Assembly: GCA_000004985.1 (NCBI GenBank)
Contig: GG738847.1
DNA: 64,000 bases
Source: Naegleria gruberi
Lineage: Eukaryota
Reading direction: 5' to 3' (one strand)
This document shows, piece by piece, positions 1,595-14,524 of this stretch. Under the pieces are notes generated by a model. It worked only from the letters and a program-made list of their open reading frames with translations. It was not told where the DNA came from and made no database searches. Each line of letters starts with the position of its first letter. The first letter of the stretch is position 1. The position numbers and the translations under genes were made by a program.

Positions 1595-4500
1595 TTAGTA
1601 CAATTCCTCCAACAAGTCATCTGTACTAAGGAAATTGGTTGATAAATCCTTATCATCTTTCCATGAGGCTTCGAGAACAACGATAGATTCATCAGGAAGG
1701 TAATCTTCCTTAATAAATACAAGTGTATTTTTTCCAAGTGGAATGATTGAGTTCTGAGATTGAAGGTGGTTCCATTCTCCTGATTCAGAAACTCTTGTGG
1801 CACATGGACACATACTCGTACAGAAATATTTAAGCTTGGAGAAAGGGCAGGCTGATTTGTAATAAGTGGTCTTTTGATCATTTACAAGAATAACCTTAAC
1901 CTCTCCATATGGTGAAATGGTGAATTTGCGAAGATCCAACTGAGCAAATTGAGCTGTATACACAAATCTCATAAGTTTTTCTTCGTTTTCTTCACTTTCA
2001 AAATCTAGAGGTCTGATGTTTGTTAAACTTGATAAACCAACCAAAGTCCACTCCCCTTCACAATATACTCTCAAGGTGTCGTAAGTGGCTGAGAAATTTG
2101 AAGGGTGGATCCATTTAAGATCTGAAAAAACATCTCCTCTTTTTGCAATGTTATGACATCCAATACCAGCATTCAAGTATTCTCTACCCATAGGTCTTGT
2201 TCCTGCCGAAACTAATTCCATTGGTGATAAAGTAGCTACAGATGCAGGTGAACGGTTGATTTTGGTTCTTACAACGTTCAATTTTTTCTTATACTCTGTG
2301 TCTTTCTTTTTTCTCAAAGTTTGGGAGGATTTAACCATAATGTTTACAATAGTTTCTTGAACTCTTGAAAGTTGTTCCAAACTTGGATAAGATCCCATTC
2401 CTGAAACTATTGTTTCAATTTTACTCTGTCTTTCATCGTCAAGTTGAATTCCAAATTCTTCAGTAATTCTTTTAACAACTTTTTGTTTAAGCTCATCATT
2501 CATGTCAGCAGGCTTTGGTTTAAGTTCTTTAACCTTATTGTTAATCAATTTGGCTGATTGTTTACCCAAGTCTTCAGATGTTTCTGTCTTTTGGAAAACT
2601 TGCTTCATTTCAGCGGCCTGTTCTTTTTGTTGTTGCTTCATGGAGGTAGCAAGTTCAACTTGAGTTTTTTCCTTCTCACAAATAGGTCCAGTGTATGCAT
2701 TCAAACAGACGCATGTATCAGTATCTGTACATGATCCTTTTCCAGAGCAAACTTTTTCATTAATTGCTTGCATACCAAAACAAACAGGAATGTTTGAACG
2801 TTGTCCAGTCTTGGCCATCTCAGCATAATTTTGCTTGAATTCTTCTTTATCAACGGCAGTGAACCCCTTTGGAATTGCTGTCATGATGGATGAAACAAAA
2901 GTCTTATTACCCATAACATCCAATGCAGTTGACTTGTCGCAAGTTGGCCCTCTGAATCCAAGATGGCATTTGCAAAAATTGTTTTTCACACAATCACCAT
3001 TACCTGAACAAACATTTGGATCTGTGGCGTCAATTTTGAAACATCTGATTGCTAATGATTTTCCACATTGGTTTCCATAATAGCCCTCCTCACATTCACA
3101 AGTATTTTTGCCGGTACAGTTTCCACGACCTGAACAAACTTCTGGAGCATCAGCATTGATTCCAAAACATTTGATGACATTTAATCTTCCACACTGGTCA
3201 CCTATATAACCTTCTTCACATTCACAATTATTTTTAGCAGTGCAATTACCATGTCCAGAACAAACATCTGGTGAAGAAGCCTTAATTCCAAAACATTTGA
3301 TTTCTGATATATCAATACCACAAAATGGTCCAATAAATCCTTCATCACATTTGCATATATTATCCTCAACACACACACCATGCCCAGAGCAAACATGTAT
3401 CGAAGAAGCCTTGATTCCATTACATTTGGCTTCAACTTCTTTGTTACATTGAGAACCAGTAAATCCAGGATCACAAGAGCAATTATTAGGCCCAACACAC
3501 AACCCATTTCCAGAACAAACAAGTGGTGAATCTTCTTCCAATCCAAAACATTTCACTAATTTCTTTGTTCCACAGAATTTTCCAGTGTAACCTTCAACAC
3601 ATTCACAATTATTTGTGGATGTACAATTACCATGTCCATTACAAACCATAGGCGAATCAGCTTCAATGCTATTACATTTTGGTTTTTCCAATTGATCACA
3701 ATTTGAACCAGTGAACCCTTTCTTGCATTGGCATATATCTTTTCCAATACAAGAACCAGATGATGAACAAACCTTATCACTTGTACCTTCAACTCCAAAA
3801 CATACAGGTGTTTGACATTTCTCGTCAGTAAATCCTTCATCACATTTACACATATTATCTCCAACACACAAACCTTGTCCAGAACAAACAAGTGCGGAAT
3901 CTTCTGGTTTTCCAAAACATTTCATTAATTTCTTTGTTTCGCAAAATCTTCCTGTGTATTCTTCAACACATTCACAATTATTTGTGGATGTACAATTACC
4001 ATGTCCATTACAAACAAGTGACGAATCAGCTTCAATATTATCACATTTTGGTTTTTCCAATTGATCACAATTTGAACCAGTGAACCCTTTCTTGCATTGA
4101 CAATCATCTTTTCCAGCACATTTACCATTTCCAGAACAAACCTTATCACTTGTGCCTTCAACTCCAAAACATACAGGTGTTTGACATATCTTACCAGTAA
4201 ATCCTTTTGAACAAACACATTTATCAGTTGATACACACATTCCATTTCCAGAACAAGCAAGTGGGGAATCTTCTGGTTTTCCATAACATTTCATTAATTT
4301 CTTTGTTTCGCAAAATCTTCCTGTGTATTCTTCAACACATTCACAATTTTCAGTTGCAGTACATTTTCCATGTCCATTACAAACGGACGATGAATTTGAT
4401 AAGACTCCATTACATTTAGGGTATTGGCATCTCTCACCACCATACCCGGTATTACAGACACACTTATTAACACCAGAACAAGTTCCTTGTCCTGTGCAAA

Positions 4501-5467
4501 CATTTTTGTCCCCTTGAAGAATACCATAACACTTAGGCTTCTCGCAGTCTATGCCTCCCCATGAGCTAGTTTCACTACATTGACATTTGTTAGGAGAATC
4601 GCATGTACCTCTTCCATTACAAACTGTATTAGCATTCGAAAGAATGGTATTACATTTTGGATATTGACAGAAGTTGCCTCCCCAATTATTTGGTTCGTTA
4701 CAAGTGCAACTATCAATGGAGGTACAGCTACCTCTTGAATTACAGACCTTAGGCGAATCAGCCTCAATGCTATTACATTTTGGTTTTTCCAACTGATCAC
4801 AATTTGAACCAGTGAACCCTTTCTTGCATTGACATATATCTTTTCCAATACAAGAACCAGATGATGAACAAACCTTATCACTTGTACCTTCAACTCCAAA
4901 ACATACAGGTGTTTGACATTTCTCACCAGTAAATCCTGTTGAACAAACACAATTATCAGTTGATCCACATACTCCCCTACCATTACAAACTTTTGGATCG
5001 TTGGAAGGAATATTAAAACATTGCCATTTTTTAGGGATTGCTGATTCAATTTCACTTGGTTGTAGGTTCTGAACTGAATCGATGCTATATGATTTTTGCA
5101 TTGGATTTAGTTCATCATTATTTTCTTTCTCATTCACTAATGTTGTTTCAGACTCATTATTACTTATACTCATTTCTTCATCTTCTTCTCCATCATCTTC
5201 CTCTTCTTTCTTTGCTTTCTTTGTTCTTTTGTTTTTAGGCGAAATGCCTTTTGTTTCCTTTGATTTTGGTTCTTTAGTAAACGGTTTTGAAATAAAATCG
5301 ACTAATTGTTGAGCAACAGTTTTTTTGGTTTTGGTTATTAAACCAAGCCCCTTCTTTTCATTTGTTTTATCTGGTTTAACGGTATTCTTAAAAGCACCAA
5401 AGGCGACTCCTGTAAGAAACAGCAATGATAAAAGGAAAAGAATAAGCACTAATTTTCCCAACCTCAT
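1595..5467 (-). CDS. Secreted giant EGF-like (tenascin/Notch-type) repeat protein of 1290 aa. It has an N-terminal signal peptide, a Lys/Glu-rich spacer, more than 20 Cys-rich EGF-like modules and a C-terminal globular domain of about 400 aa.
   Basis: Single uninterrupted ORF. The N-terminus MRLGKLVLILFLLSLLFLTGVAFG is a classical signal peptide. Repeated CxxxGxCxxxxxCxCxxGFTGxxC modules are present. The C-terminal region (RVYCEGEWTLVGL...) could be fibrinogen-related, but that is unverified. Confidence 0.75.
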   Translation of the reverse strand: MRLGKLVLILFLLSLLFLTGVAFGAFKNTVKPDKTNEKKGLGLITKTKKTVAQQLVDFISKPFTKEPKSKETKGISPKNKRTKKAKKEEEDDGEEDEEMSISNNESETTLVNEKENNDELNPMQKSYSIDSVQNLQPSEIESAIPKKWQCFNIPSNDPKVCNGRGVCGSTDNCVCSTGFTGEKCQTPVCFGVEGTSDKVCSSSGSCIGKDICQCKKGFTGSNCDQLEKPKCNSIEADSPKVCNSRGSCTSIDSCTCNEPNNWGGNFCQYPKCNTILSNANTVCNGRGTCDSPNKCQCSETSSWGGIDCEKPKCYGILQGDKNVCTGQGTCSGVNKCVCNTGYGGERCQYPKCNGVLSNSSSVCNGHGKCTATENCECVEEYTGRFCETKKLMKCYGKPEDSPLACSGNGMCVSTDKCVCSKGFTGKICQTPVCFGVEGTSDKVCSGNGKCAGKDDCQCKKGFTGSNCDQLEKPKCDNIEADSSLVCNGHGNCTSTNNCECVEEYTGRFCETKKLMKCFGKPEDSALVCSGQGLCVGDNMCKCDEGFTDEKCQTPVCFGVEGTSDKVCSSSGSCIGKDICQCKKGFTGSNCDQLEKPKCNSIEADSPMVCNGHGNCTSTNNCECVEGYTGKFCGTKKLVKCFGLEEDSPLVCSGNGLCVGPNNCSCDPGFTGSQCNKEVEAKCNGIKASSIHVCSGHGVCVEDNICKCDEGFIGPFCGIDISEIKCFGIKASSPDVCSGHGNCTAKNNCECEEGYIGDQCGRLNVIKCFGINADAPEVCSGRGNCTGKNTCECEEGYYGNQCGKSLAIRCFKIDATDPNVCSGNGDCVKNNFCKCHLGFRGPTCDKSTALDVMGNKTFVSSIMTAIPKGFTAVDKEEFKQNYAEMAKTGQRSNIPVCFGMQAINEKVCSGKGSCTDTDTCVCLNAYTGPICEKEKTQVELATSMKQQQKEQAAEMKQVFQKTETSEDLGKQSAKLINNKVKELKPKPADMNDELKQKVVKRITEEFGIQLDDERQSKIETIVSGMGSYPSLEQLSRVQETIVNIMVKSSQTLRKKKDTEYKKKLNVVRTKINRSPASVATLSPMELVSAGTRPMGREYLNAGIGCHNIAKRGDVFSDLKWIHPSNFSATYDTLRVYCEGEWTLVGLSSLTNIRPLDFESEENEEKLMRFVYTAQFAQLDLRKFTISPYGEVKVILVNDQKTTYYKSACPFSKLKYFCTSMCPCATRVSESGEWNHLQSQNSIIPLGKNTLVFIKEDYLPDESIVVLEASWKDDKDLSTNFLSTDDLLEELY
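3200..5060 (-). repeat. Intragenic tandem coding repeat with a period of about 369 bp (123 aa, i.e. three EGF modules), in at least 4-5 copies. Some copies are near-identical.
   Basis: Out-of-frame shadow ORFs at 3556..3915, 3925..4284, 4294.. and 4549..5055 start with near-identical peptides spaced exactly 369 nt apart. The protein shows repeating KLMKCYGKPEDS...CQTPVCFGVEGTSDKVCS...CDQLEKPKC...IEADS...VCNGHGNCTSTNNCECVE blocks. Confidence 0.7.
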
Positions 5468-5679: not shown

Positions 5680-7029
5680 TTACTTTTGCTTTTTTTCTTC
5701 ATTTTGAATATTCTTGAGTTGTTCGATCTTTTCAAGTTTTTGCTTCTTGAAGAGATTATTGAGTTCTGATCTATATTCTTTCTTGAATTGCTTGTTCTCT
5801 TGAACAATTTTACGGAGAGATTCAATCATAACATCGCTTGGTTCTTTGTTGCCATACTTATTTCTCATTTCACTCCAATATCTCTTAATACGAGTCATGT
5901 CAAAAATAGCTGTCTTACTAATGTCATTTCCTGTGGTAGATTTAACTTCATTAGCTCTTTGGAAGGCTTCACGATAACATGCTTCAAGCAAAAGGAAGAA
6001 AACTGGTTCCTTTGCTCGTATAGTGGTAGACTTCAAATGGTTTTCATAGAGGTCGTACATCTTGCTATATTCATCGAATTGAAGATATTTCTTCATCAAA
6101 TTTACATATGTTTGATGGTCATAAGTTATTTGTTCATCTTCCATTTGCTTTTTAACAATTTCTGTTTGTTCTAGTGTTTGGCATGATGTTATCATCATAT
6201 TATAAAAGAGGGTCAAAACTTTTGAAGGATTGTTTTCAGCCATATCAGTTCCAGTTGGAATGATTGTATAAACTCTTTCTTTGATGGTATCCATAATCTT
6301 GGCACAATCATCATAGTTTTGAAGGAAAGAATTAACTTTCATCATACATCCATATAATGAGTAATCAACTTTATCTTCTCCGTATGTTGACTTAAATTCC
6401 TCAAAATAGAGATCACATTTTTCCTTGTCCAAAACATTACTCATACTGTTAATTAAATTTGTATATGCTCTAGTAATGATTTCATCTCTATGTGGAATAG
6501 AATCACCTGCTTCTTCATGAATCTTCAACTTTTCCTTGAATTGATTGAAATAGTCAACAGCTCTAACTTCTTCCTTCTTATATTTACAGGCATTAATCAT
6601 ATATACGAGTAAACTAATTGGAATTTGAGTCAGACTATAGTGTTGCATCATCATATCATAGTATTTGTGGGCCTTGTCAGACTTTTGGCTTTTAACCAAA
6701 GCATTAATACATTGGGTATAAACTTCGATTGAAGGAACAGGGACATTATTAATTCTTAAATCTTCAATAATATTTTGAACGGTAGTTTCGACAGTCTCGG
6801 GATTTCTCTTATCGCAAGCAGCTTGTGCTTTACGGAGGTATTTCTTTTCAACAGCTACTCGTTTAGCGTTTGGATTTTCATAAACTTGAGAGTTCAATGA
6901 TGTTGGTGTAACTCTTGTTTTGGCGTTGGTAGCAACACTCAAAATAGAGCTTTGGGTATGATATTGTTGATGTTTGGTAGAAAGGAAGGCAGAGACTGCT
7001 TTTTGGTTCTTTGTGAAGACTCTTCTCAT
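5680..7029 (-). CDS. Hypothetical alpha-helical repeat (PPR/TPR-like) protein of 449 aa, possibly mitochondrial.
   Basis: Single ORF with AAAAATG context. The basic N-terminus MRRVFTKNQKAVSAFLSTKHQQ looks presequence-like. Degenerate roughly 35-aa helical repeats are rich in Y/L/K. No specific family was recognised. Confidence 0.45.
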   Translation of the reverse strand: MRRVFTKNQKAVSAFLSTKHQQYHTQSSILSVATNAKTRVTPTSLNSQVYENPNAKRVAVEKKYLRKAQAACDKRNPETVETTVQNIIEDLRINNVPVPSIEVYTQCINALVKSQKSDKAHKYYDMMMQHYSLTQIPISLLVYMINACKYKKEEVRAVDYFNQFKEKLKIHEEAGDSIPHRDEIITRAYTNLINSMSNVLDKEKCDLYFEEFKSTYGEDKVDYSLYGCMMKVNSFLQNYDDCAKIMDTIKERVYTIIPTGTDMAENNPSKVLTLFYNMMITSCQTLEQTEIVKKQMEDEQITYDHQTYVNLMKKYLQFDEYSKMYDLYENHLKSTTIRAKEPVFFLLLEACYREAFQRANEVKSTTGNDISKTAIFDMTRIKRYWSEMRNKYGNKEPSDVMIESLRKIVQENKQFKKEYRSELNNLFKKQKLEKIEQLKNIQNEEKKQK

Positions 7030-7155
7030 TTTTTTAAAAATTCATCAATAAAAAAATTTAAATTAAAAAATTTATTTTTATTTACAAAAAGTTGAGTGGA
7101 AACCCAGCTAGCAATATATTTAAAGTTGCGATTGATTATTACTCTAACAGTTATT

Positions 7156-8260
7156 ATGAGCACTACCAGCAACATTATACCTAATCTTACAACAGATACA
7201 ACAACAACAGGAACTTCATCACCACAATTAACTGTCCCAAATAGCAGTGGCACACAGTAAGTTTATGACACATTATTTTGGAAAGCAATATTGATTCATA
7301 TTTTCAATAGTACTTCGGAATTTTCACCTTCTGTTGCACCAGGAACAACCGTTATTAATCAGAGAGGATTTGATTCAAGATCGACTTCAAGTAGTTTTAA
7401 TCAATTTTTTGGAGGTGATGATGATAGTATAGCATCGGATGAGGATGAAAACGATATTCTTCTTCCTTTCAGAAATGCTGTTGTTTATAGTAGAACTGAT
7501 AATCATCAAAGGCATTCAAAGAATGTCTTTGAATTTATTGTAATATTGTTATGTCTTGTTCCGACTACAATATTTTCAGTTTCAGCATCGAGTGTCTATG
7601 TAATGATAGATTCATTTGTGAGTGAATATGCACCAAATAATGAAAAATCACTCACTAACTTTCTACAGGCACAATTTTTGTCTGTAATTGTGATTATCAC
7701 ATTTATAGAGTTTGTCAAATTTTTGCTAGTTCTGGTAATTTCAGTACTTTTTGCATTTGTGGTAAAGGTAGGTTATTTGAAAAGCAAAAGGAGTATTTAT
7801 TTCAATTATTATTTCAAAGGTCTACACTTTGGATAGTCATCTTACTGGAGGAGTGAAGAAGAATCACAAATTTTTCCAATATTTTCATGAGAATTTGACA
7901 AATAATCCTTTTTGTTGCTTAATAGGACTCTCTTGTTGTGTATTGACAGGTTACATCACTTTTAATATTGGACTAACTTATTCCATTATTTCACTATTCA
8001 TCTCTAATATTACTCCAGAATTCTCCCATCTCACTAATATTAAGATTGCTACACTCATTAATGTTTTGGATTGGATTTTATTCATTTTCTATTTCCTTGT
8101 CTACTTTAAACTCCAACAAAAGCAAAAAGCTCTTCATGAGCATAACACTGAGAGTGAAGATGAATACTATGACAGTGCTGGTGAACAGAATGTTTTTGAA
8201 TCCATCACCAATACTTTCACTTCAAGCAACAGAGCACCTTCCTCATCCGATAATATTTAA
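7156..8260 (+). CDS. Multi-pass transmembrane protein with three exons: 7156..7256, 7311..7767 and 7820..8260.
   Basis: The ATG at 7156 follows an A/T-rich leader. The GTAAGT...AG introns 7257..7310 and 7768..7819 keep the frame. Several hydrophobic helices are visible (VFEFIVILLCLVPTTIFSV, FLSVIVIITFIEFVKFLLVLVISVLFAFVV, CCLIGLSCCVLTGYITF, ILFIFYFLVYF). Confidence 0.5.
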
Positions 8261-8263
8261 AAA

Positions 8264-8803
8264 ATGCCTAAAGACCAAACAAGACCACACCAACAACAAT
8301 ACAGAAGTAGTGATTCGGGATCTCGTTATCAACCATATAATAACAATAACGTACAACAAAAAACATCCAACCCTAAAAAGGTGGTATCACAAGATAGTAA
8401 TAGGAATACATCAGATAAAAAAATTAATAATTTACCATCAACAAATAGTGGAAAGAAGATAACCAATTTTGAACAACAACCAAATCTTGTAAATAATAAT
8501 TCGGAAAATATTTATCAATCACAAAGAGAAAGAAATACCAGTAAATATGGTAAATCGAACGGTCAATCGACATCTGATGATGAGTTCTCCATTCCTTCAG
8601 TTGAGGAAGATGAAAACTTACAATTAATGAAAAGTCTGGGCTTGCCAACATCATTTGATACTACACATGAAAAACATGTTGCAGGAAAAGCAAATAATCT
8701 GAGTGGAGTTAAAATTACAACTAAACGAAAGGTAAAACAAGTAATGAACCTTAAAGATAAACCAGTCCATACTCACCAATTCACTAATAAACCAAGATAT
8801 TAG
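8264..8803 (+). CDS. Low-complexity N/S/Q/K-rich ORF of 179 aa. It is in the same frame as the upstream membrane-protein ORF and separated from it by a single TAA. It is either a C-terminal extension (readthrough or indel) or a separate small gene.
   Basis: A 540-nt stop-free ORF in AT-rich DNA is very unlikely to be noncoding. Its ATG lies 3 nt after the upstream stop and in the identical frame. Confidence 0.35.
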   Translation: MPKDQTRPHQQQYRSSDSGSRYQPYNNNNVQQKTSNPKKVVSQDSNRNTSDKKINNLPSTNSGKKITNFEQQPNLVNNNSENIYQSQRERNTSKYGKSNGQSTSDDEFSIPSVEEDENLQLMKSLGLPTSFDTTHEKHVAGKANNLSGVKITTKRKVKQVMNLKDKPVHTHQFTNKPRY

Positions 8804-8926
8804 TGACCCAAAGATCGAAGGTATTCTCTTTTGCTTGATCTTGACAGTCACAACATTTTACGCGCTAATTGGTTCTTGTAGTTATCTCCCGCCAAAACAC
8901 AATCCAATAACAAAAATTTAAAAAAA

Positions 8927-11900
8927 ATGGAAAACGATGAAGAAATTGTTCTTCCTTCTAGCAATGACATCTTTCAAAAGATGCTCGAAGAAGAGCTTAG
9001 AAAAGAGGAAGAAAGGATGAAGAATAAATCACAAAAACCAAAAATTTCATCAAACAATTCAGATAAACTATTGAGGCCCCCTTCAGCCTCAACATCTCTC
9101 AATCCTCCACCAGCAAACATATCACCAACAGCATCTGTAGAATTATCAAACTTCCTTATATCAAGCAAAAACATCAATAACTTTATTTCTGATGCACCTC
9201 CTGTAAACATCCCAACCGAAGAAAATAATAACAGCGAAATATCATCACCAACATCTGAAACAATCAAGACTTCTTCATCAACTGTTAAAGAGGAAAAAAA
9301 TAGCAAACCATCAACTCCGGCATCTGATATCAAAGTAGGTACTGTGCCAAAGAAACAAAATCCGATCAACAAACCAAGCCCACAAAATGAACTGAACAAA
9401 TCAATACCAATTCCCGAAAATAATTTAAATGGAGACTCAGCATCTTCATCTCAAGATTCTACAACTCTATTTGAAACCTTGTTGAAGGAAGAATTGGAAC
9501 GATCAAAACAACAATCGGAAGGAGGAGAAGATAAACCTGCTTGGGCAAAGAAAGTAGACGAATTGGATGAATTAATCACAAAATTCAAAACAAAGGATAC
9601 AAACGATAGCATTTTTCAAGATAGTGGTAAGTTTTAATTTTGAACAAATATTACAAAATAATTGATAGAAACTGAATTGACACAAACCCTAAATAATAGA
9701 CACCCAAATATTTTAGAAAAAGGAGTAGAAACCCTATTTCACTATGTTAATAGATACCAAAATGTTCAGAACTCGGCAGAAAAGTTTATCAACCTACTGG
9801 TTGATAAAGGTCTCTCATCAAAGAGCTCCGTGCAACAAAAATCAACGGATATTATCCTATTATATTTTGAAACTTGTGATCCAGCAGCTATTCTTACAGT
9901 TCTCAAAGCATTTTTCAGTAGTAAGAAAGCAAAGGTTCGTTCTCAATGCATTGGAATTGTAAAGTCAGCCGTACAATGTTTTGGTTTTCCCACCATTCCA
10001 CCTAAAATGATTCTTCAAAGTTTACCTACTATTCTTGAAGATGCCAGCTCAAGAGAAGAGTCCCATAAGCTTGCAATAGAAACTTTTAAATGGCTTGGAT
10101 ACGAAACAGTAGAGCCACATCTTAAAGATGTCAAAGGAAGTAAATTAAAAGCACTTAAAGATGAATACGATCTATTACAGGACAAGTCACCTAAACCAAC
10201 CAGATTTTCAAGACTGGCAAGCGTTTATAACTCAACAGCCAGTATTAAGAATTTGGTTACTGCTGCATCAGAAGAGCTGAAAGCTAAACGAGAAATTATA
10301 GACCTTAACGATAAAATAAGAAAGGATTGGTATGATGATGTTACTAACGCCAAGTGGATTATTAAGAGAGATGCTCTTAAAGAGCTCAAACAACTCTTGG
10401 AAACGTTCAATATTAAGAAAGCCGACTATTCTGAAATATTATCTCAGATTAATGTAATTATTCAAAGAGAGAAAAATGTAGTTGTTGTGAAGGAAAGTAT
10501 TGAATGCTTAAGTGCATTCTCTAAAGCCTTAAAAACAGATTTTACATCATCAGCAAAGCCATTTTACGAACGATTACTTACAAAACTGAAAGAAAAAAAT
10601 CTTTCTGATTCGACTATAGAGTGTTTAGTTTCATTTGATGTTAGTTCATTTCCCTTTACAGATATGTTGGAAACTATTTTCTCTGCAATGAACAACAAGA
10701 CAGCCTCTACCTCTGAGAAACTTCAAATATTTACATTCATCGACAAATGCTTCCAAAACAAGAAGAAGAAGGATTTAGAAAAGGCTTTAAAAAATTTGGT
10801 TAATAATTTGCTTTCGTTTTGTGAAGATGCAAGTTCAGAGGTTAGAGATTTGTGTTGCAAAACTTTGGCAAGATTATTATTTATTATTGGGGACACTGAT
10901 TATACAAATTTATTCCTTAAACTCGACTCTTACATGAAGGAAAAGATTGTTCAATATCTGGAATCGTATGGATCACCTCCTTCTGATGGTGTTGGAAAAA
11001 AACTTTCTCAATCCATAGAAAAGAAGACAGCACCTGCAAATATTCCAAAGACAACTAGCTCAGTCACACTTAGGCCTAGCTCAAGAGCAGATACTAACCC
11101 AGTTAGATCTAGTACATCATCTCTCGCTAAGAAGCCTTCTTCGAAGCCATTAGTATCAAAGTCAATATCCCTTAAAAAAACGGAATCAATTCAAAGTTTA
11201 TCTAGTTCTGATGTTATTGAGGAAGCCAATAATTTGTTTGGAGGAAATATTGTTGAACAACTAGCCAACAGTAATTGGAATGATAGAATGCTCTCATTGA
11301 ATCATATTGAATCTGTAATTAGTAGTCTCGACAAGAATGACCTTCAAACAAAGCATGAACACATTATTTCATTATTCCAATACAAACCAGGTACTAAAGA
11401 GTCTAATGCCAAGGTTTTGGAAAAGATATTCGAAATAATAGAACGTGTTCTCTCCTCAACAGAGGGAAAGTTATCAGAGGTTAATATACCACCAACACTT
11501 CAGTGGATGATTGAAAAATTAGCTACACCTAAAGTTGATATAATTATTCAGAAAGCTATGAAGAAAGTGTGCGAGTCAATTAATCCACAATTTGTTTTTA
11601 ATAAGATTTCAGAAACTTTGACTGACAAAATGCCTCCAAAATTGATTGGATCAGTTTTGGAATGGTTAGGAGAGGTTATTACTGAATTCAGTATTGCTTG
11701 CTTTAATAGTTCGGAATTAATTGAATTTTCTAAAAAATATCTTGGGAATAGTAATCCAATTATTAAGAAAGGATGCATCAAAATGTTATGTTCCATGAAG
11801 TTGTTCATGGGAGAGGGCTTGTTGAACTTTTTGGGAGATGTTAAACCAGCTCTTCTAGACATGGTAAAAAAGGATTTTTCAAAAGTTGATTCTAAACCTC

Positions 11901-14524
11901 CTGAACCAACAAGAAAAGTAAAGGGAGAACAACTTAAAGTCAGTAGTGCAATGTATGACACACTTCCAAGATGTGACATTTTACCAAAACTTCACCCAAA
12001 GATTTATCACAGTATGGAAGATAAGAATTGGATGACAAGACTTGAAGCAATTCAAACTGTAGAAAAAATTATCGTAAATGATGCCCACAAAAGAATTTTA
12101 CCAAACATTCTTGAACTGATACATGCATTGAGACAAAGATTGGAAGACAATAATAACAAAGTAGTGATATCTACACTTTTATTGATTGACCTGATCTCAG
12201 AGGCAGTTGGCCCAGAAATGGAAAAGTTTATCAAGATTCTCCTTCCCAGTGTTATTTCGAAATCTATGCACAATAACAAGGCAGTGAGGACATGTGCACT
12301 AGAATCTTTGGAGAAATATTTAAATATAGTTCAGTTTGAGAGTATGCTCAAAATATTCCCTAAATCCATAGCAAGCGACAAAGGAAACCCTGAAGGCAAG
12401 AAGGAAATTATTGAATTTATGCACAAACATATAGTAGAAATGAAAAATAAGAATGTGGATTTATTTACTCCTCTGGTGAAGCCAATACTCGATTACTTAA
12501 CAAAGGCTGGTTCAGATACAAGGAAATTAGCAGAGGCAATATTGGGTGAAATTATTTCTAATGGAGGATATGACTTTGTCTTTAAGAGAATTAGAGAACT
12601 CAAAGCTGCCCATCAAAAAGGTTTCTCACTTCTTCTTCAAAAGTATGCCCCTTCTACTGAGGTGGAATCTCAACCTCCACCTGTTACTCAATCCCTCACA
12701 CTACCAACAACACCTTCCAACTCTATCAGAGGTGATAAGAAAATTACTCTAAGAGATGTTAGTAAATCTCTTAGTGTGGATACTAGACAGACAGAGGAAG
12801 AAGAGGGGTCAAAAGTGCCAAAGACTGTCAAAAAACGGGCCAATATCTCAAAGACTTTGGCAACCTCACCAAACAAATCTCCATCACCCTCCTCACCAAA
12901 GACAAAACCTATTACAAACACCTTTGTTCCAAAATTACAATTCTCCACAGGCATTACAGGCATTGCAACTGTTGACGAATACAAGTTAGATTTGGATAAG
13001 ATTGAAGTGAATCATGACTCTCCAGTAGAAGCAGAAACACCAATGCATGATGTGTACAATTCAGCAAATGGCCCAATGCCAGGAAATATTACACCAAGGA
13101 TGCCAGAGCGATCTCCAGTAAGAGATAATAAGAAGGAAGAGTTAATATCTGGTCATTCTATTGGAGAGCTAGTAAAGGCAATCAATACAAACGACCATGG
13201 ATCTGAGATAGCCATCAATGCTCTGAAGACCCTAGTCTCCATGTTTAAAGATGAGTCTTGCAGACCGGCTATTTTATCATACCTTAAAGAATTGGTCGAG
13301 TCCCTAACAGACAATACGCAGTACTCTTTTGAGAAGGCATCTGCTGGTTTAGTCTCTACAAGAATATGTAAATATCTCCTTTCAACACTTATGCAACTTT
13401 TTAGTAATAGACAAATGGCTGCTTTTGTACCACAAGAGACACTACAAAGAATGATCGACCAACTACTGAGCAGACTGTTGGACGAAAGATTACCTAGTCT
13501 CGACTATGGACAGGAATTATTAAGAGGGTTGAACTCTTTAATGTTGAAAGTTTTGGAAAATTCAAATCGAACCTATTCCTATACCTCACTGATTCACTTG
13601 TTAGAATATTCATATGCAAATACTTCGTTGAAAAAATATACTGAGCTAGTTGTCAAGTGCTTGATCAAATTAACAAAAGCACTCGCTGCAACTATTGACA
13701 GAGTTGATGTTGATATTTTGTTGATGGATCTTCACAGCTTCTTAACTCATAACCCACCAACATTCTTCAAGGACAGGAATGATCTACCACTTAGAACCAT
13801 TAAAACCATCCTTAACGAACTTGTGAAGGTTAAAGGAGAAACTATCAGATCATGTCTTGGACTTATCCCTACCCACAAAAATCCACTAATTATTTCATAT
13901 ATTGAATTGATGGTAAACTCTGCTCAAACAACAGTTTCTTCCAGTACAAACTCACAAGCAACTGTTCCATCCACTACTACCCCTAATATTACAGCACAAA
14001 CGATAAGCAAACCTCCAAGAAATAGTGTTACAGCCAGTCAAATTCAGCAAGCATACCCTCTTCAACAACCATCCACTGTTTCAAATGAAAAGATAGTACA
14101 GGATGAACTCACTGATATTTTCAACTTGATAAGTAATAAGGATAGTACTCATACTGGTCTATACAGACTATATGAATTCAAAAAGAACCATCCAAGTGTT
14201 GGTATCAATAACCACTTGTTAAAATGTAGTGAACCTTTCCAACAATACATTCATAGACAATTGGCCAAGATTGCACAATATGAATCCTCAAAGCAAGAGA
14301 GCTTTGCAGCATCATCCCACAGAGCCCAATCACCAGCATCAAGGCAGAGACAGGCAACAGCAATTACCTCTGTTGACGATATCAGAAGACAATTGAAACT
14401 TCATCAACAAGAATCCAAACAAAAGAATATGGGAAGGTCTTTGACAGTCTCTGACCTAAAGAAGAGAATTCAAAACATTGAAGAAAAGCTTTCTTCTACA
14501 GACAATGAGACCACAGAAGAATAA
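8927..14524 (+). CDS. TOG/HEAT-repeat microtubule-associated protein of the XMAP215/Dis1/CKAP5 family, about 1850 aa. Exons are 8927..9626 and 9669..14524.
   Basis: Exon 1 (a low-complexity 233-aa N-terminal extension) ends at a GTAAGT donor in phase 1, and the acceptor at 9667-9668 restores the frame of ORF 9662..14524. The region ...FGFPTIPPKMILQSLPTILEDASSREESHKLAIETFKWLG...LKALKDEYDLLQDKSPKPTRF parallels the XMAP215 TOG1 motifs (VVPPKRILKMLPELFDH...LTLELCRWIG). Multiple HEAT-like repeats follow, and the middle region is S/T/P-rich and disordered. Confidence 0.6.

Follow-up and report, generated by a model that had tools for sequence, protein, structure and literature searches.

Two protein-coding genes lie one behind the other on the + strand of the window (the whole 64-kb stretch of Naegleria gruberi DNA that was analysed), with three nucleotides between them (Table 1). 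The upstream gene encodes a multi-pass membrane protein. Its three exons splice into a coding sequence of 999 nt without an internal stop, giving a product of 332 residues, in which hydropathy analysis placed about four hydrophobic helices (at about 103-133, 148-192, 216-238 and 260-284). The helices in a low-confidence AlphaFold model (5-sequence alignment; mean pLDDT 45, pTM 0.26), which was too poor for a fold search, agree with these segments. The N. lovaniensis orthologue (C9374_012529) is also 332 residues long and is 58% identical. Further orthologues occur in N. fowleri, in Willaertia and in a divergent Naegleria species (species X), and the family is restricted to Naegleria and Willaertia. 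In every species the tail that follows a conserved EYY(D/E)S motif is short and variable (15-26 residues in the orthologues), and the point at which the orthologous proteins end never differs from the N. gruberi TAA by more than a few residues. Both N. lovaniensis and N. fowleri have a gene call for the protein; no counterpart was found among the N. gruberi proteins of the searched database, likely because gene callers dislike a 3-nt spacer.

Table 1. Features of the membrane-protein/SNRNP27 locus, in window coordinates.
Feature	Position	Strand	Description
Membrane-protein gene, exon 1	7156-7256	+	Start codon at 7156; phase 2 at its end; the spliced CDS aligns with C9374_012529 (N. lovaniensis)
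Intron 1, 54 nt	7257-7310	+	GTAAGT...AATAG; exon junction agrees with orthologues (...SG(T/L)(H/Y)(T/S)SEFSPSV)
Exon 2	7311-7767	+	Membrane-protein gene
Intron 2, 52 nt, GT-AG	7768-7819	+	GTAGGT...CAAAG; intron position shared with N. fowleri (...FGIK / VYTFDS)
Exon 3, including stop codon	7820-8260	+	Frame open back to the acceptor at 7820
Junction 18-mer AATATTTAAAAAATGCCT	8252-8269	+	Shared without mismatch by N. gruberi and the divergent species X
TAA	8258-8260	+	Membrane-protein stop codon, and part of the T/A-run start context of SNRNP27
Spacer AAA, 3 nt	8261-8263	+	Separates the membrane-protein stop from the SNRNP27 start
SNRNP27 (U4/U6.U5 tri-snRNP 27K) orthologue	8264-8803	+	Single exon, 179 aa
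Conserved SNRNP27 domain, aa 117-162 (46 residues)	8612-8749	+	Pfam PF08648 match
AATAAA	8786-8791	+	Within Asn-Lys codons, 15 nt ahead of the SNRNP27 stop; only canonical hexamer in 8100-8900, + strand

The first-pass annotation had described the downstream ORF as a low-complexity sequence that was too long to have arisen by chance. The second point was borne out. Given the base composition of the 64-kb window, a run of at least 180 sense codons has a probability of about 2e-6 per start, so that about 0.02 are expected in the six frames, and an ORF of this length is therefore not a chance one. The first point stands for the N-terminal two-thirds, which are rich in N, S, Q and K (12.8% N, 11.7% S, 11.2% K and 8.9% Q for the ORF), and not for the 46 residues towards the C-terminus, which match the Pfam SNRNP27 profile (34.2 bits against a gathering cut-off of 23.1, E = 2.7e-08). 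The ORF is 100% identical, over 100% of the query, to an N. gruberi 'predicted protein' at NCBI, for which, as for its orthologues, PF08648 is precomputed. Hence the organism is N. gruberi, a heterolobosean, and not a dictyostelid as had been supposed; the SNRNP27 ORF is already annotated.

A search of the PDB with the C-terminal 71 residues returned human SNRNP27 as its only match (chain 6qw6_X, residues 97-144, E = 0.0013). Met161 aligns with human Met141, with QYMN opposite QVMN, and the C-terminal motif ...RK(Y/V)(R/K)Q(Y/V)MN... is present. Across five heterolobosean SNRNP27 sequences, M161, N162, R155, K156 and Q159 are invariant. The N. gruberi protein thus resembles human SNRNP27 and C. 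elegans SNRP-27 (PMC6140464, PMC10581693) in having a C-terminal PF08648 domain that includes the equivalent of human M141. It differs from the human protein in its N-terminal two-thirds, which are not RS-rich and are poorly conserved even within Naegleria. No RS-rich N-terminal domain of the human type was found in N. gruberi SNRNP27, which has isolated RS/SR dipeptides only; such an N-terminus belongs to the metazoan protein and not to the Pfam family. On these sequence grounds the ORF is an SNRNP27 orthologue, with predicted membership of the tri-snRNP. A WD40 repeat match from a full-alignment profile search of the PDB was rejected as spurious, as it was built from many sub-threshold stretches. 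A metagenome scan with the SNRNP27 alignment gave 248 pattern matches, none of which (0) was confirmed by tblastn.

The junction between the two genes reads ...TCC GAT AAT ATT TAA AAA ATG CCT AAA GAC..., confirming that TAA, AAA and ATG follow one another in a single frame. The SNRNP27 ATG (8264-8266) is offset by 6 nt from the TAA. Because the spacer is 3 nt long, the two codons are in frame by construction, and their frame relation carries no extra weight as evidence. Ten long ORFs in the 64-kb window start with TA(5-9)TG, and 3/10 of them have an in-frame TAA, in line with the chance expectation of 1/3.

The first-pass annotation had considered read-through of the TAA, a sequencing error or a dicistronic arrangement, and had proposed a search among orthologues for a contiguous ORF. 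Species X is the only relative with the N. gruberi layout, keeping both the 3-nt spacing and the in-frame arrangement; the ORFs are separate in N. lovaniensis, N. fowleri and Willaertia. In N. lovaniensis they are adjacent, with separate locus tags (C9374_012529 and C9374_012530), a spacer of 47 nt, a different frame (+2) and two in-frame stops between the genes. In N. fowleri the spacer is 207 nt, and the 210 nt that lead from the stop codon to the ATG contain seven in-frame stops. The Willaertia SNRNP27 gene stands alone: it is preceded by a gene in the opposite orientation, and about 8 kb separate it from the membrane-protein orthologue, which is likewise encoded on the opposite strand. No protein spanning both halves was found in the searched databases, and no fusion is annotated. 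Together, these frames and stops, the non-adjacency in Willaertia and the lack of a fusion rule out conserved read-through.

Programmed read-through of the TAA, adding SNRNP27 to the membrane protein as a C-terminal extension, is accordingly very improbable, even though N. gruberi and species X both have a single in-frame stop followed by 180 sense codons. SNRNP27 has its own ATG, and exists without the membrane-protein gene beside it. The protein starts with MP(K/R)(D/E) at this ATG in all five heterolobosean orthologues, so the downstream AAAAAATG is a genuine start codon. The leaky contexts UGA-C and UAG-CARYYA are absent, the sequence being UAA-AAA-AUG-CCU; UAA with A as the next base terminates strongly and is not a known read-through context. 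An Rfam scan of 6500-9500, at E up to 1, gave no match to any structure. Finally, it would make little biological sense for a spliceosomal factor of the nucleus to be fused to a multi-pass membrane protein.

The two remaining ways of turning the locus into one gene fare no better. An assembly or sequencing error could have made TAA of a sense codon in one long gene, but nothing other than the in-frame arrangement speaks for this. Two assemblies made independently of each other, L005 (Logan) and L010 (a metagenome contig from ENA), show the same junction in species X, and this rules such an error out; moreover, the membrane-protein orthologues end near this point and the SNRNP27 orthologues all start at this Met. 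We therefore give an error virtually no credence. An intron spanning the TAA, which would join both ORFs in the mature mRNA, is just as remote. The membrane-protein gene does have two short GT-AG introns, but the only possible donors in 8100-8258 are GTGAAG, GTGCTG, GTGAAC and GTTTTT, none of which is like the GTAAGT and GTAGGT donors upstream, and the orthologue comparison speaks against any fusion. The TAA is a genuine stop codon and a normal gene boundary, the two ORFs are two cistrons rather than one, and each protein is made on its own, without any fusion.

The same TAA belongs to the start motif of SNRNP27, since TTTAAAAA(A)ATG, a T-run and an A-run ahead of many start codons, is the usual start context in N. 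gruberi. When TTA(5-9)TG occurred, an ORF of at least 100 codons followed in 9/14 cases, compared with 12.8% for all ATGs. The AAAAAATGCC context is kept among the SNRNP27 orthologues, including the stand-alone gene of Willaertia. As a candidate for an upstream promoter or initiator motif, TTCAA was found at 8/19 A-run starts (21% expected, P = 0.03) and was set aside as too weak. Promoter elements are undefined in Naegleria (PMC13315211), and a search of the literature on Naegleria transcription start sites, 5'UTR lengths and polycistrons found no locus-level or 5'-end data. A scan for bacterial-type promoters and terminators, a method that is uninformative for a eukaryote, gave nothing above the shuffled expectation.

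Spacing elsewhere weakens the earlier argument that a 3-nt spacer between independent transcription units is implausible. Other same-strand stop-to-ATG spacers in the window are 35, 60 and 123 nt long and those in related loci 36-75 nt, so that 35-75 nt is the norm, and convergent stop codons in the window are 21 and 35 nt apart. The N. gruberi genome reportedly measures roughly 41 Mb. As a difference from compacted genomes, local spacers range over 21-207 nt and the 3-nt one is the extreme case; no other spacer of up to 10 nt was seen in the 64-kb window. In N. gruberi the median 3'UTR is 39 nt and AAUAAA lies 15-20 nt ahead of the cleavage site (PMC11529991). It follows that a normal 3' end of the membrane-protein mRNA must fall inside the SNRNP27 gene, and that 3 nt is less than the combined length of a normal UTR and promoter.

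The AAUAAA signal also overlaps 11-13% of N. gruberi stop codons (PMC11529991). SNRNP27 fits this dual-use pattern in carrying AATAAA in its last codons, and SNRNP27 of N. lovaniensis and of N. fowleri has the hexamer too, at -18. The membrane-protein gene does not fit it: neither AATAAA nor ATTAAA occurs in 8100-8785, and so neither lies near its stop. This absence is weak evidence, as AATAAA lies within -6..+20 of the stop at 15/32 ORF ends in the window, and about half of the ends thus lack a canonical hexamer. The hexamer-free stretch up to 8786 also fits a transcript that runs through both genes. No N. gruberi transcript assemblies were found in a database search, which returned one contig only.

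The junction itself is unusually well conserved. The 18-mer AATATTTAAAAAATGCCT is the longest exact match between N. gruberi and species X within both genes (the runner-up is 11 nt), at an overall DNA identity of 64.7%. Sequence conservation of this kind shows that the 18 nt are under constraint, for which a promoter or initiator, a translation start context and stop-start coupling would all be fitting causes. A metagenome scan with the junction pattern ATTTAAAAAATGCCNNNAGANCAA gave four matches, all by chance (two in a bacterial isoleucyl-tRNA-synthetase-like ORF, one in another ORF and one in non-coding sequence).

Stop-start coupling would imply a conserved bicistronic mRNA, transcribed from the membrane-gene promoter, on which SNRNP27 is translated by termination-reinitiation or coupled initiation at UAA-AAA-AUG. 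Termination-reinitiation bicistrons are known from influenza B (M1/BM2, UAAUG) and from caliciviruses (VP1/VP2, with a TURBS), and polycistronic nuclear mRNAs exist in green algae. As in those cases, the first ORF stops a few nucleotides (here 3 nt) from the start of the second on one strand. The spacing and the 18-nt junction are kept in the deeply divergent species X, no canonical poly(A) hexamer occurs from the membrane-protein stop to the AATAAA at 8786, and the pair stays adjacent in four Naegleria species despite a break in N. gruberi synteny just downstream.

Several observations nevertheless make such an mRNA unlikely. The A-run context also precedes genes without a same-strand upstream neighbour, e.g. 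7029(-), 51650(+) and 51465(-), and the stand-alone Willaertia SNRNP27. Unlike in the viral and algal cases, the orthologues tolerate spacers of 47-207 nt (47 nt in N. lovaniensis, 207 nt in N. fowleri), so that tight coupling is not needed for expression. Unless a dedicated element is present, reinitiation after an ORF of 332 codons is as a rule very inefficient. TGGGA, the core of calicivirus TURBS motif 1, is absent from 8140-8258 and from the equivalent 100 nt of L005 and L010, and the start context, unlike that of the viral examples, is generic for the N. gruberi genome. A further point against is that the membrane-protein/SNRNP27 spacer is the sole case of 10 nt or less in the window. 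Same-strand runs in Heterolobosea contain about 2 genes each, and the group is considered monocistronic (bioRxiv 10.64898/2026.07.29.740908). That the 18-nt junction is the coupling element of a bicistronic mRNA in the N. gruberi and species X lineages is, if anything, slightly less likely still. A shared mRNA, if it did exist, would represent a novel way of expressing genes in Heterolobosea, which are sister to the polycistronic Euglenozoa; if it were also coupled, it would be the first heterolobosean nuclear bicistron with stop-start coupling.

What, then, accounts for the 3-nt spacing? The locus very probably consists of two separate same-strand genes that abut in a compact nuclear genome. 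Overlapping transcription units are the likeliest mechanism, given spacers of 21-75 nt nearby and a median 3'UTR of 39 nt. In the N. gruberi lineage the upstream frame extends as far as the T-run/A-run start motif. SNRNP27 would most likely have a transcription start of its own, located at the A-run or a short way upstream of it, and the final codons of the membrane-protein gene would harbour the SNRNP27 core promoter. The mRNA of the membrane gene would most likely terminate either within the coding region of SNRNP27 or at the poly(A) site of that gene. The outcome would be overlapping transcription units, as in other compacted eukaryotic genomes.

Overlapping or abutting transcription units have been described in microsporidia and nucleomorphs, in the work of Williams et al. 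(2005, PNAS) as it is cited in PMC3629993. Two separate genes at the N. gruberi locus would be comparable in having a very short spacer, such that transcripts have to start within the upstream gene, finish within the downstream gene, or both, and in that each ORF would still yield a separate protein. In contrast to those organisms, Naegleria is a free-living amoeba and does not have the reduced genome of a parasite or endosymbiont, and the transcript overlap is here a prediction. As a gene boundary the membrane-protein/SNRNP27 junction matters little, and its practical value lies in annotation: the re-annotation of Naegleria genomes would profit from two signals, the TTTAAAAA(A)ATG start motif and the occurrence of AATAAA at the stop. 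In addition, the locus with its conserved 3-nt spacing is convenient for studying how promoters and poly(A) sites are placed without intergenic DNA in a free-living eukaryote. When a Naegleria tree was rooted to see whether the 3-nt spacer is ancestral, 67% of the bootstrap replicates placed species X at the base and 32% placed it as the sister of N. gruberi.

The in-frame TAA at 8258-8260 marks an ordinary though extreme boundary between two genuine, separately conserved genes of a compact protist genome: a multi-pass membrane-protein gene upstream and SNRNP27, the tri-snRNP 27K orthologue, downstream. The sequence at 8246-8275 reads TCC GAT AAT ATT TAA AAA ATG CCT AAA GAC, which confirms the single in-frame TAA and 3-nt spacing described in the first-pass annotation: one AAA codon lies between stop and ATG, and the frame is shared. 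On its own this in-frame relation is uninformative, because any spacer of 3 nt keeps the frame. The frame upstream of the TAA is open back to 7820, and the downstream frame is open for 179 codons. At a base composition of 31.6% A and 33.8% T, only ~0.02 stop-free runs of that length are expected across the six frames of the 64-kb window, so, as had also been claimed, the downstream ORF is not a chance run. Sister species already have the two genes side by side in their annotation, and SNRNP27 is annotated in N. gruberi; what still deserves attention is the conservation of the 3-nt spacing and of an 18-nt junction, together with an upstream gene that is apparently unannotated in N. gruberi.

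Features at and around the junction (window coordinates)
Feature	Position	Strand	Detail
Membrane gene, exon 1	7156-7256	+	spliced CDS reading
Membrane gene, exon 2	7311-7767	+	spliced CDS reading
Membrane gene, exon 3 (last)	7820-8260	+	spliced CDS reading
Membrane gene, introns		+	54 nt, starts GTAAGT; 52 nt, starts GTAGGT
TTCAA	8221-8225		~37-40 nt upstream of SNRNP27 ATG
SNRNP27 ORF	8264-8803	+	ATG 8264-8266, TAG 8801-8803
First AATAAA after 8100	8786-8791	+	Asn-Lys codons, 15 nt ahead of SNRNP27 stop
T-run/A-run starts, examples	7029(-), 8264, 8927, 14585, 30058(-), 35382(-), 51650, 62860
236-aa ORF	8927-9637	+	24 nt before the TOG-domain ORF
1620-aa ORF	9662-14524	+	TOG domain (XMAP215/CLASP family)
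1290-aa ORF	1595-5467	-	EGF-like repeats

The spliced membrane CDS is 999 nt long with no internal stops, and encodes 332 aa with approximately four hydrophobic helices; helices in a low-confidence structure model agree with these hydrophobic segments. Its closest relative is N. lovaniensis C9374_012529 (332 aa, 58% identity). An exhaustive HMMER search from that orthologue, through 1.84 billion representative proteins, returned five relatives only, all Naegleria-like or Willaertia, and judged by these sequence matches the family does not extend beyond Naegleria and Willaertia. The membrane protein matched no Pfam family. No N. gruberi protein matching the gene was returned, although the searched database includes the N. 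gruberi proteome, so the reference annotation appears to lack it.

An NCBI entry, "predicted protein [Naegleria gruberi]", matches the SNRNP27 ORF at 100% identity over its full length, which places the window in N. gruberi, a heterolobosean amoeba; the dictyostelids first proposed for comparison are thus the wrong group. The description of this ORF as low-complexity holds for the N-terminal two-thirds, which are N/S/Q/K-rich and poorly conserved and gave rise to that impression, but not for the C-terminal part, where the Pfam SNRNP27 domain spans residues 117-162 (34.2 bits; gathering cut-off 23.1). The C-terminal 71 residues have a single PDB match, the human U4/U6.U5 tri-snRNP 27-kDa protein (chain 6qw6_X), in which Met141, a residue with functional studies (PMC6140464), aligns with N. 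gruberi Met161. All five SNRNP27 orthologues, including that of Willaertia magna, share an MP(K/R)(D/E) N-terminus and the DNA start context AAAAAATGCC; ATG 8264 is therefore a conserved initiation codon. The automatic call on an N. fowleri Logan contig (L004, 4328-4960) is a 210-aa SNRNP27 from an upstream ATG (MFQPKKMPRE...), and the NCBI annotation of the same sequence has 204 aa and starts MPRE. The orthologue alignment supports the shorter form.

The locus is syntenic in N. lovaniensis, in N. fowleri (L002, and L004 from a Logan run) and in a second divergent Naegleria, here called species X, with the common order PPR-like gene (minus strand), membrane gene, SNRNP27; the last two are kept together in all four Naegleria species. 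In N. lovaniensis the membrane gene ends at a TGA, the spacer is 47 nt, the ATG lies in another frame, and a second in-frame stop, TAA, stands 8 nt ahead of it. The 207-nt spacer of N. fowleri holds six further in-frame stops. In Willaertia the genes are not adjacent: the upstream neighbour of SNRNP27 is on the other strand, and the membrane-protein orthologue is ~8 kb away on the opposite strand. An orthologue comparison of the kind proposed in the first-pass annotation, made in these relatives, found no contiguous ORF. The tail after the EYY(D/E)S motif is 26 residues in N. gruberi, 21 in species X, 17 in N. fowleri and 15 in N. lovaniensis, so the membrane protein ends at roughly one point in every species, and searches with both proteins returned none long enough to cover the two genes. 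Together, these observations rule out a conserved read-through fusion, the first explanation that had been offered. The stop context was likewise rejected as a read-through signal, since UAA terminates strongly when the next base is A. Splicing across the TAA is unlikely, as the only GTs in 8100-8258 (GTGAAG, GTGCTG, GTGAAC and GTTTTT) are not donor-like. Rfam found no structured RNA around the junction (6500-9500).

Species X also disposes of the suggestion that a sequencing error created the TAA. Its junction, AAC AAT ATT TAA AAA ATG CCT, has the same 3-nt spacer, shared frame and single TAA, and the frame upstream encodes the C-terminus of the membrane protein. It was read from two assemblies, a Logan assembly of SRR636569 (L005) and a 6.2-kb contig of ENA metagenome ERZ27315067 (L010), which differ in sample and assembler and are 98.7% identical. 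Species X and N. gruberi differ by a 45% amino-acid p-distance (426 columns), about as much as N. fowleri and N. gruberi do, and share 64.7% DNA identity over 3 kb. Within both genes the longest exact match between the two species is the 18-mer AATATTTAAAAAATGCCT, against 11 nt for the next-longest, so the junction is under constraint.

Other spacers are also short. The window has same-strand stop-to-ATG distances of 35, 60 and 123 nt, and those at the related loci are 36-75 nt. Convergent stop codons lie 21 nt (57609/57631) and 35 nt (1559/1595) apart in the window, and both stops of the 57609/57631 pair are inside AATAAA (hexamer at -2), so the 3' ends of the two mRNAs must overlap in antisense. 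In N. gruberi 11-13% of stop codons overlap the AAUAAA hexamer (PMC11529991). With a 3-nt spacer, the normal 3' end of the membrane mRNA would fall within the SNRNP27 coding region, and the SNRNP27 promoter would sit in the last codons of the membrane gene. Overlapping transcripts of this kind have been described in compacted genomes such as those of microsporidia (Williams et al. 2005, as cited in PMC3629993), a situation like the one we infer here.

A bicistronic mRNA, in which a transcript from the membrane-gene promoter runs to the SNRNP27 poly(A) site and SNRNP27 is translated by termination-reinitiation, is the main competing explanation, and we consider it improbable. No AATAAA or ATTAAA occurs on the + strand between 8100 and 8785, so such a transcript could reach that site, and the stop-start spacing is conserved in N. 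gruberi and species X. However, AATAAA lies within -6 to +20 of the stop at 15 of the 32 ORF ends in the window, about half likewise being without a canonical hexamer there. A TURBS-like TGGGA is absent upstream of the junction, reinitiation after 332 codons is normally inefficient, and N. fowleri and N. lovaniensis express SNRNP27 despite their longer spacers. We favour overlapping transcription units as the probable arrangement, because SNRNP27 is independent in relatives, its start context is generic, and Heterolobosea, whose same-strand runs hold ~2 genes each, are considered monocistronic (bioRxiv 10.64898/2026.07.29.740908). An AATAAA at -18 from the SNRNP27 stop is kept in N. lovaniensis and N. 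fowleri, with CATAAA in its place in species X. Cleavage of the SNRNP27 mRNA is predicted at or just after the stop codon, with an ultrashort 3'UTR.

What makes the start context generic? At many N. gruberi genes in the window the ATG comes directly after an A-run that is itself preceded by a T-run. Of 14 TTA(5-9)TG occurrences, 9 lead into an ORF of 100 codons or more, compared to 12.8% of all ATGs. TA(5-9)TG opens ten long ORFs, with a TAA in frame with the ATG in three, as expected by chance. Three such starts, 7029(-), 51465(-) and 51650(+), are at divergent promoters without a same-strand neighbour, and the last shares the 13-mer AATATTTAAAAAA with the SNRNP27 start. The TAA is therefore part of SNRNP27's generic start context, and the locus is special only in having an upstream ORF that extends right up to the motif. 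N. lovaniensis likely represents an intermediate state: without its TGA, the frame would continue for 13 codons and end at the equivalent TAA beside the A-run. As a motif, TTA(5-9)TG may be initiator-like or belong to the translation start, and re-annotation could make use of it. Of 19 A-run starts, 8 have TTCAA in the 60 nt before them (21% expected, P = 0.03), and in species X (L005/L010) it also lies ~38 nt ahead of the SNRNP27 ATG; as an initiator or promoter element it is a weak lead.

Beyond the gene pair, synteny is lost directly after SNRNP27 (8804 onwards, against L001 of N. lovaniensis, L002 and L010). A 536-545-aa gene lies 3' of SNRNP27 in N. lovaniensis and N. fowleri, and the species X gene there has, by eye, a similar N-terminus; none of these genes matches anywhere in the window. 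The N. fowleri spacer contains an intron-like stretch of ~125 nt (L002 ~3838-3965, GTAAGGGCC...CATTTCCAG), absent from the N. lovaniensis spacer, which could be a UTR intron. The 1620-aa TOG ORF is without the first ~60 positions of the TOG profile; a short intron probably joins it to the 236-aa ORF in a single gene. The 1290-aa ORF carries many cysteine-rich EGF-like repeats (...C.NGHG.C......C.C..G(F/Y)TG..C...), among which near-identical copies can be made out by eye.
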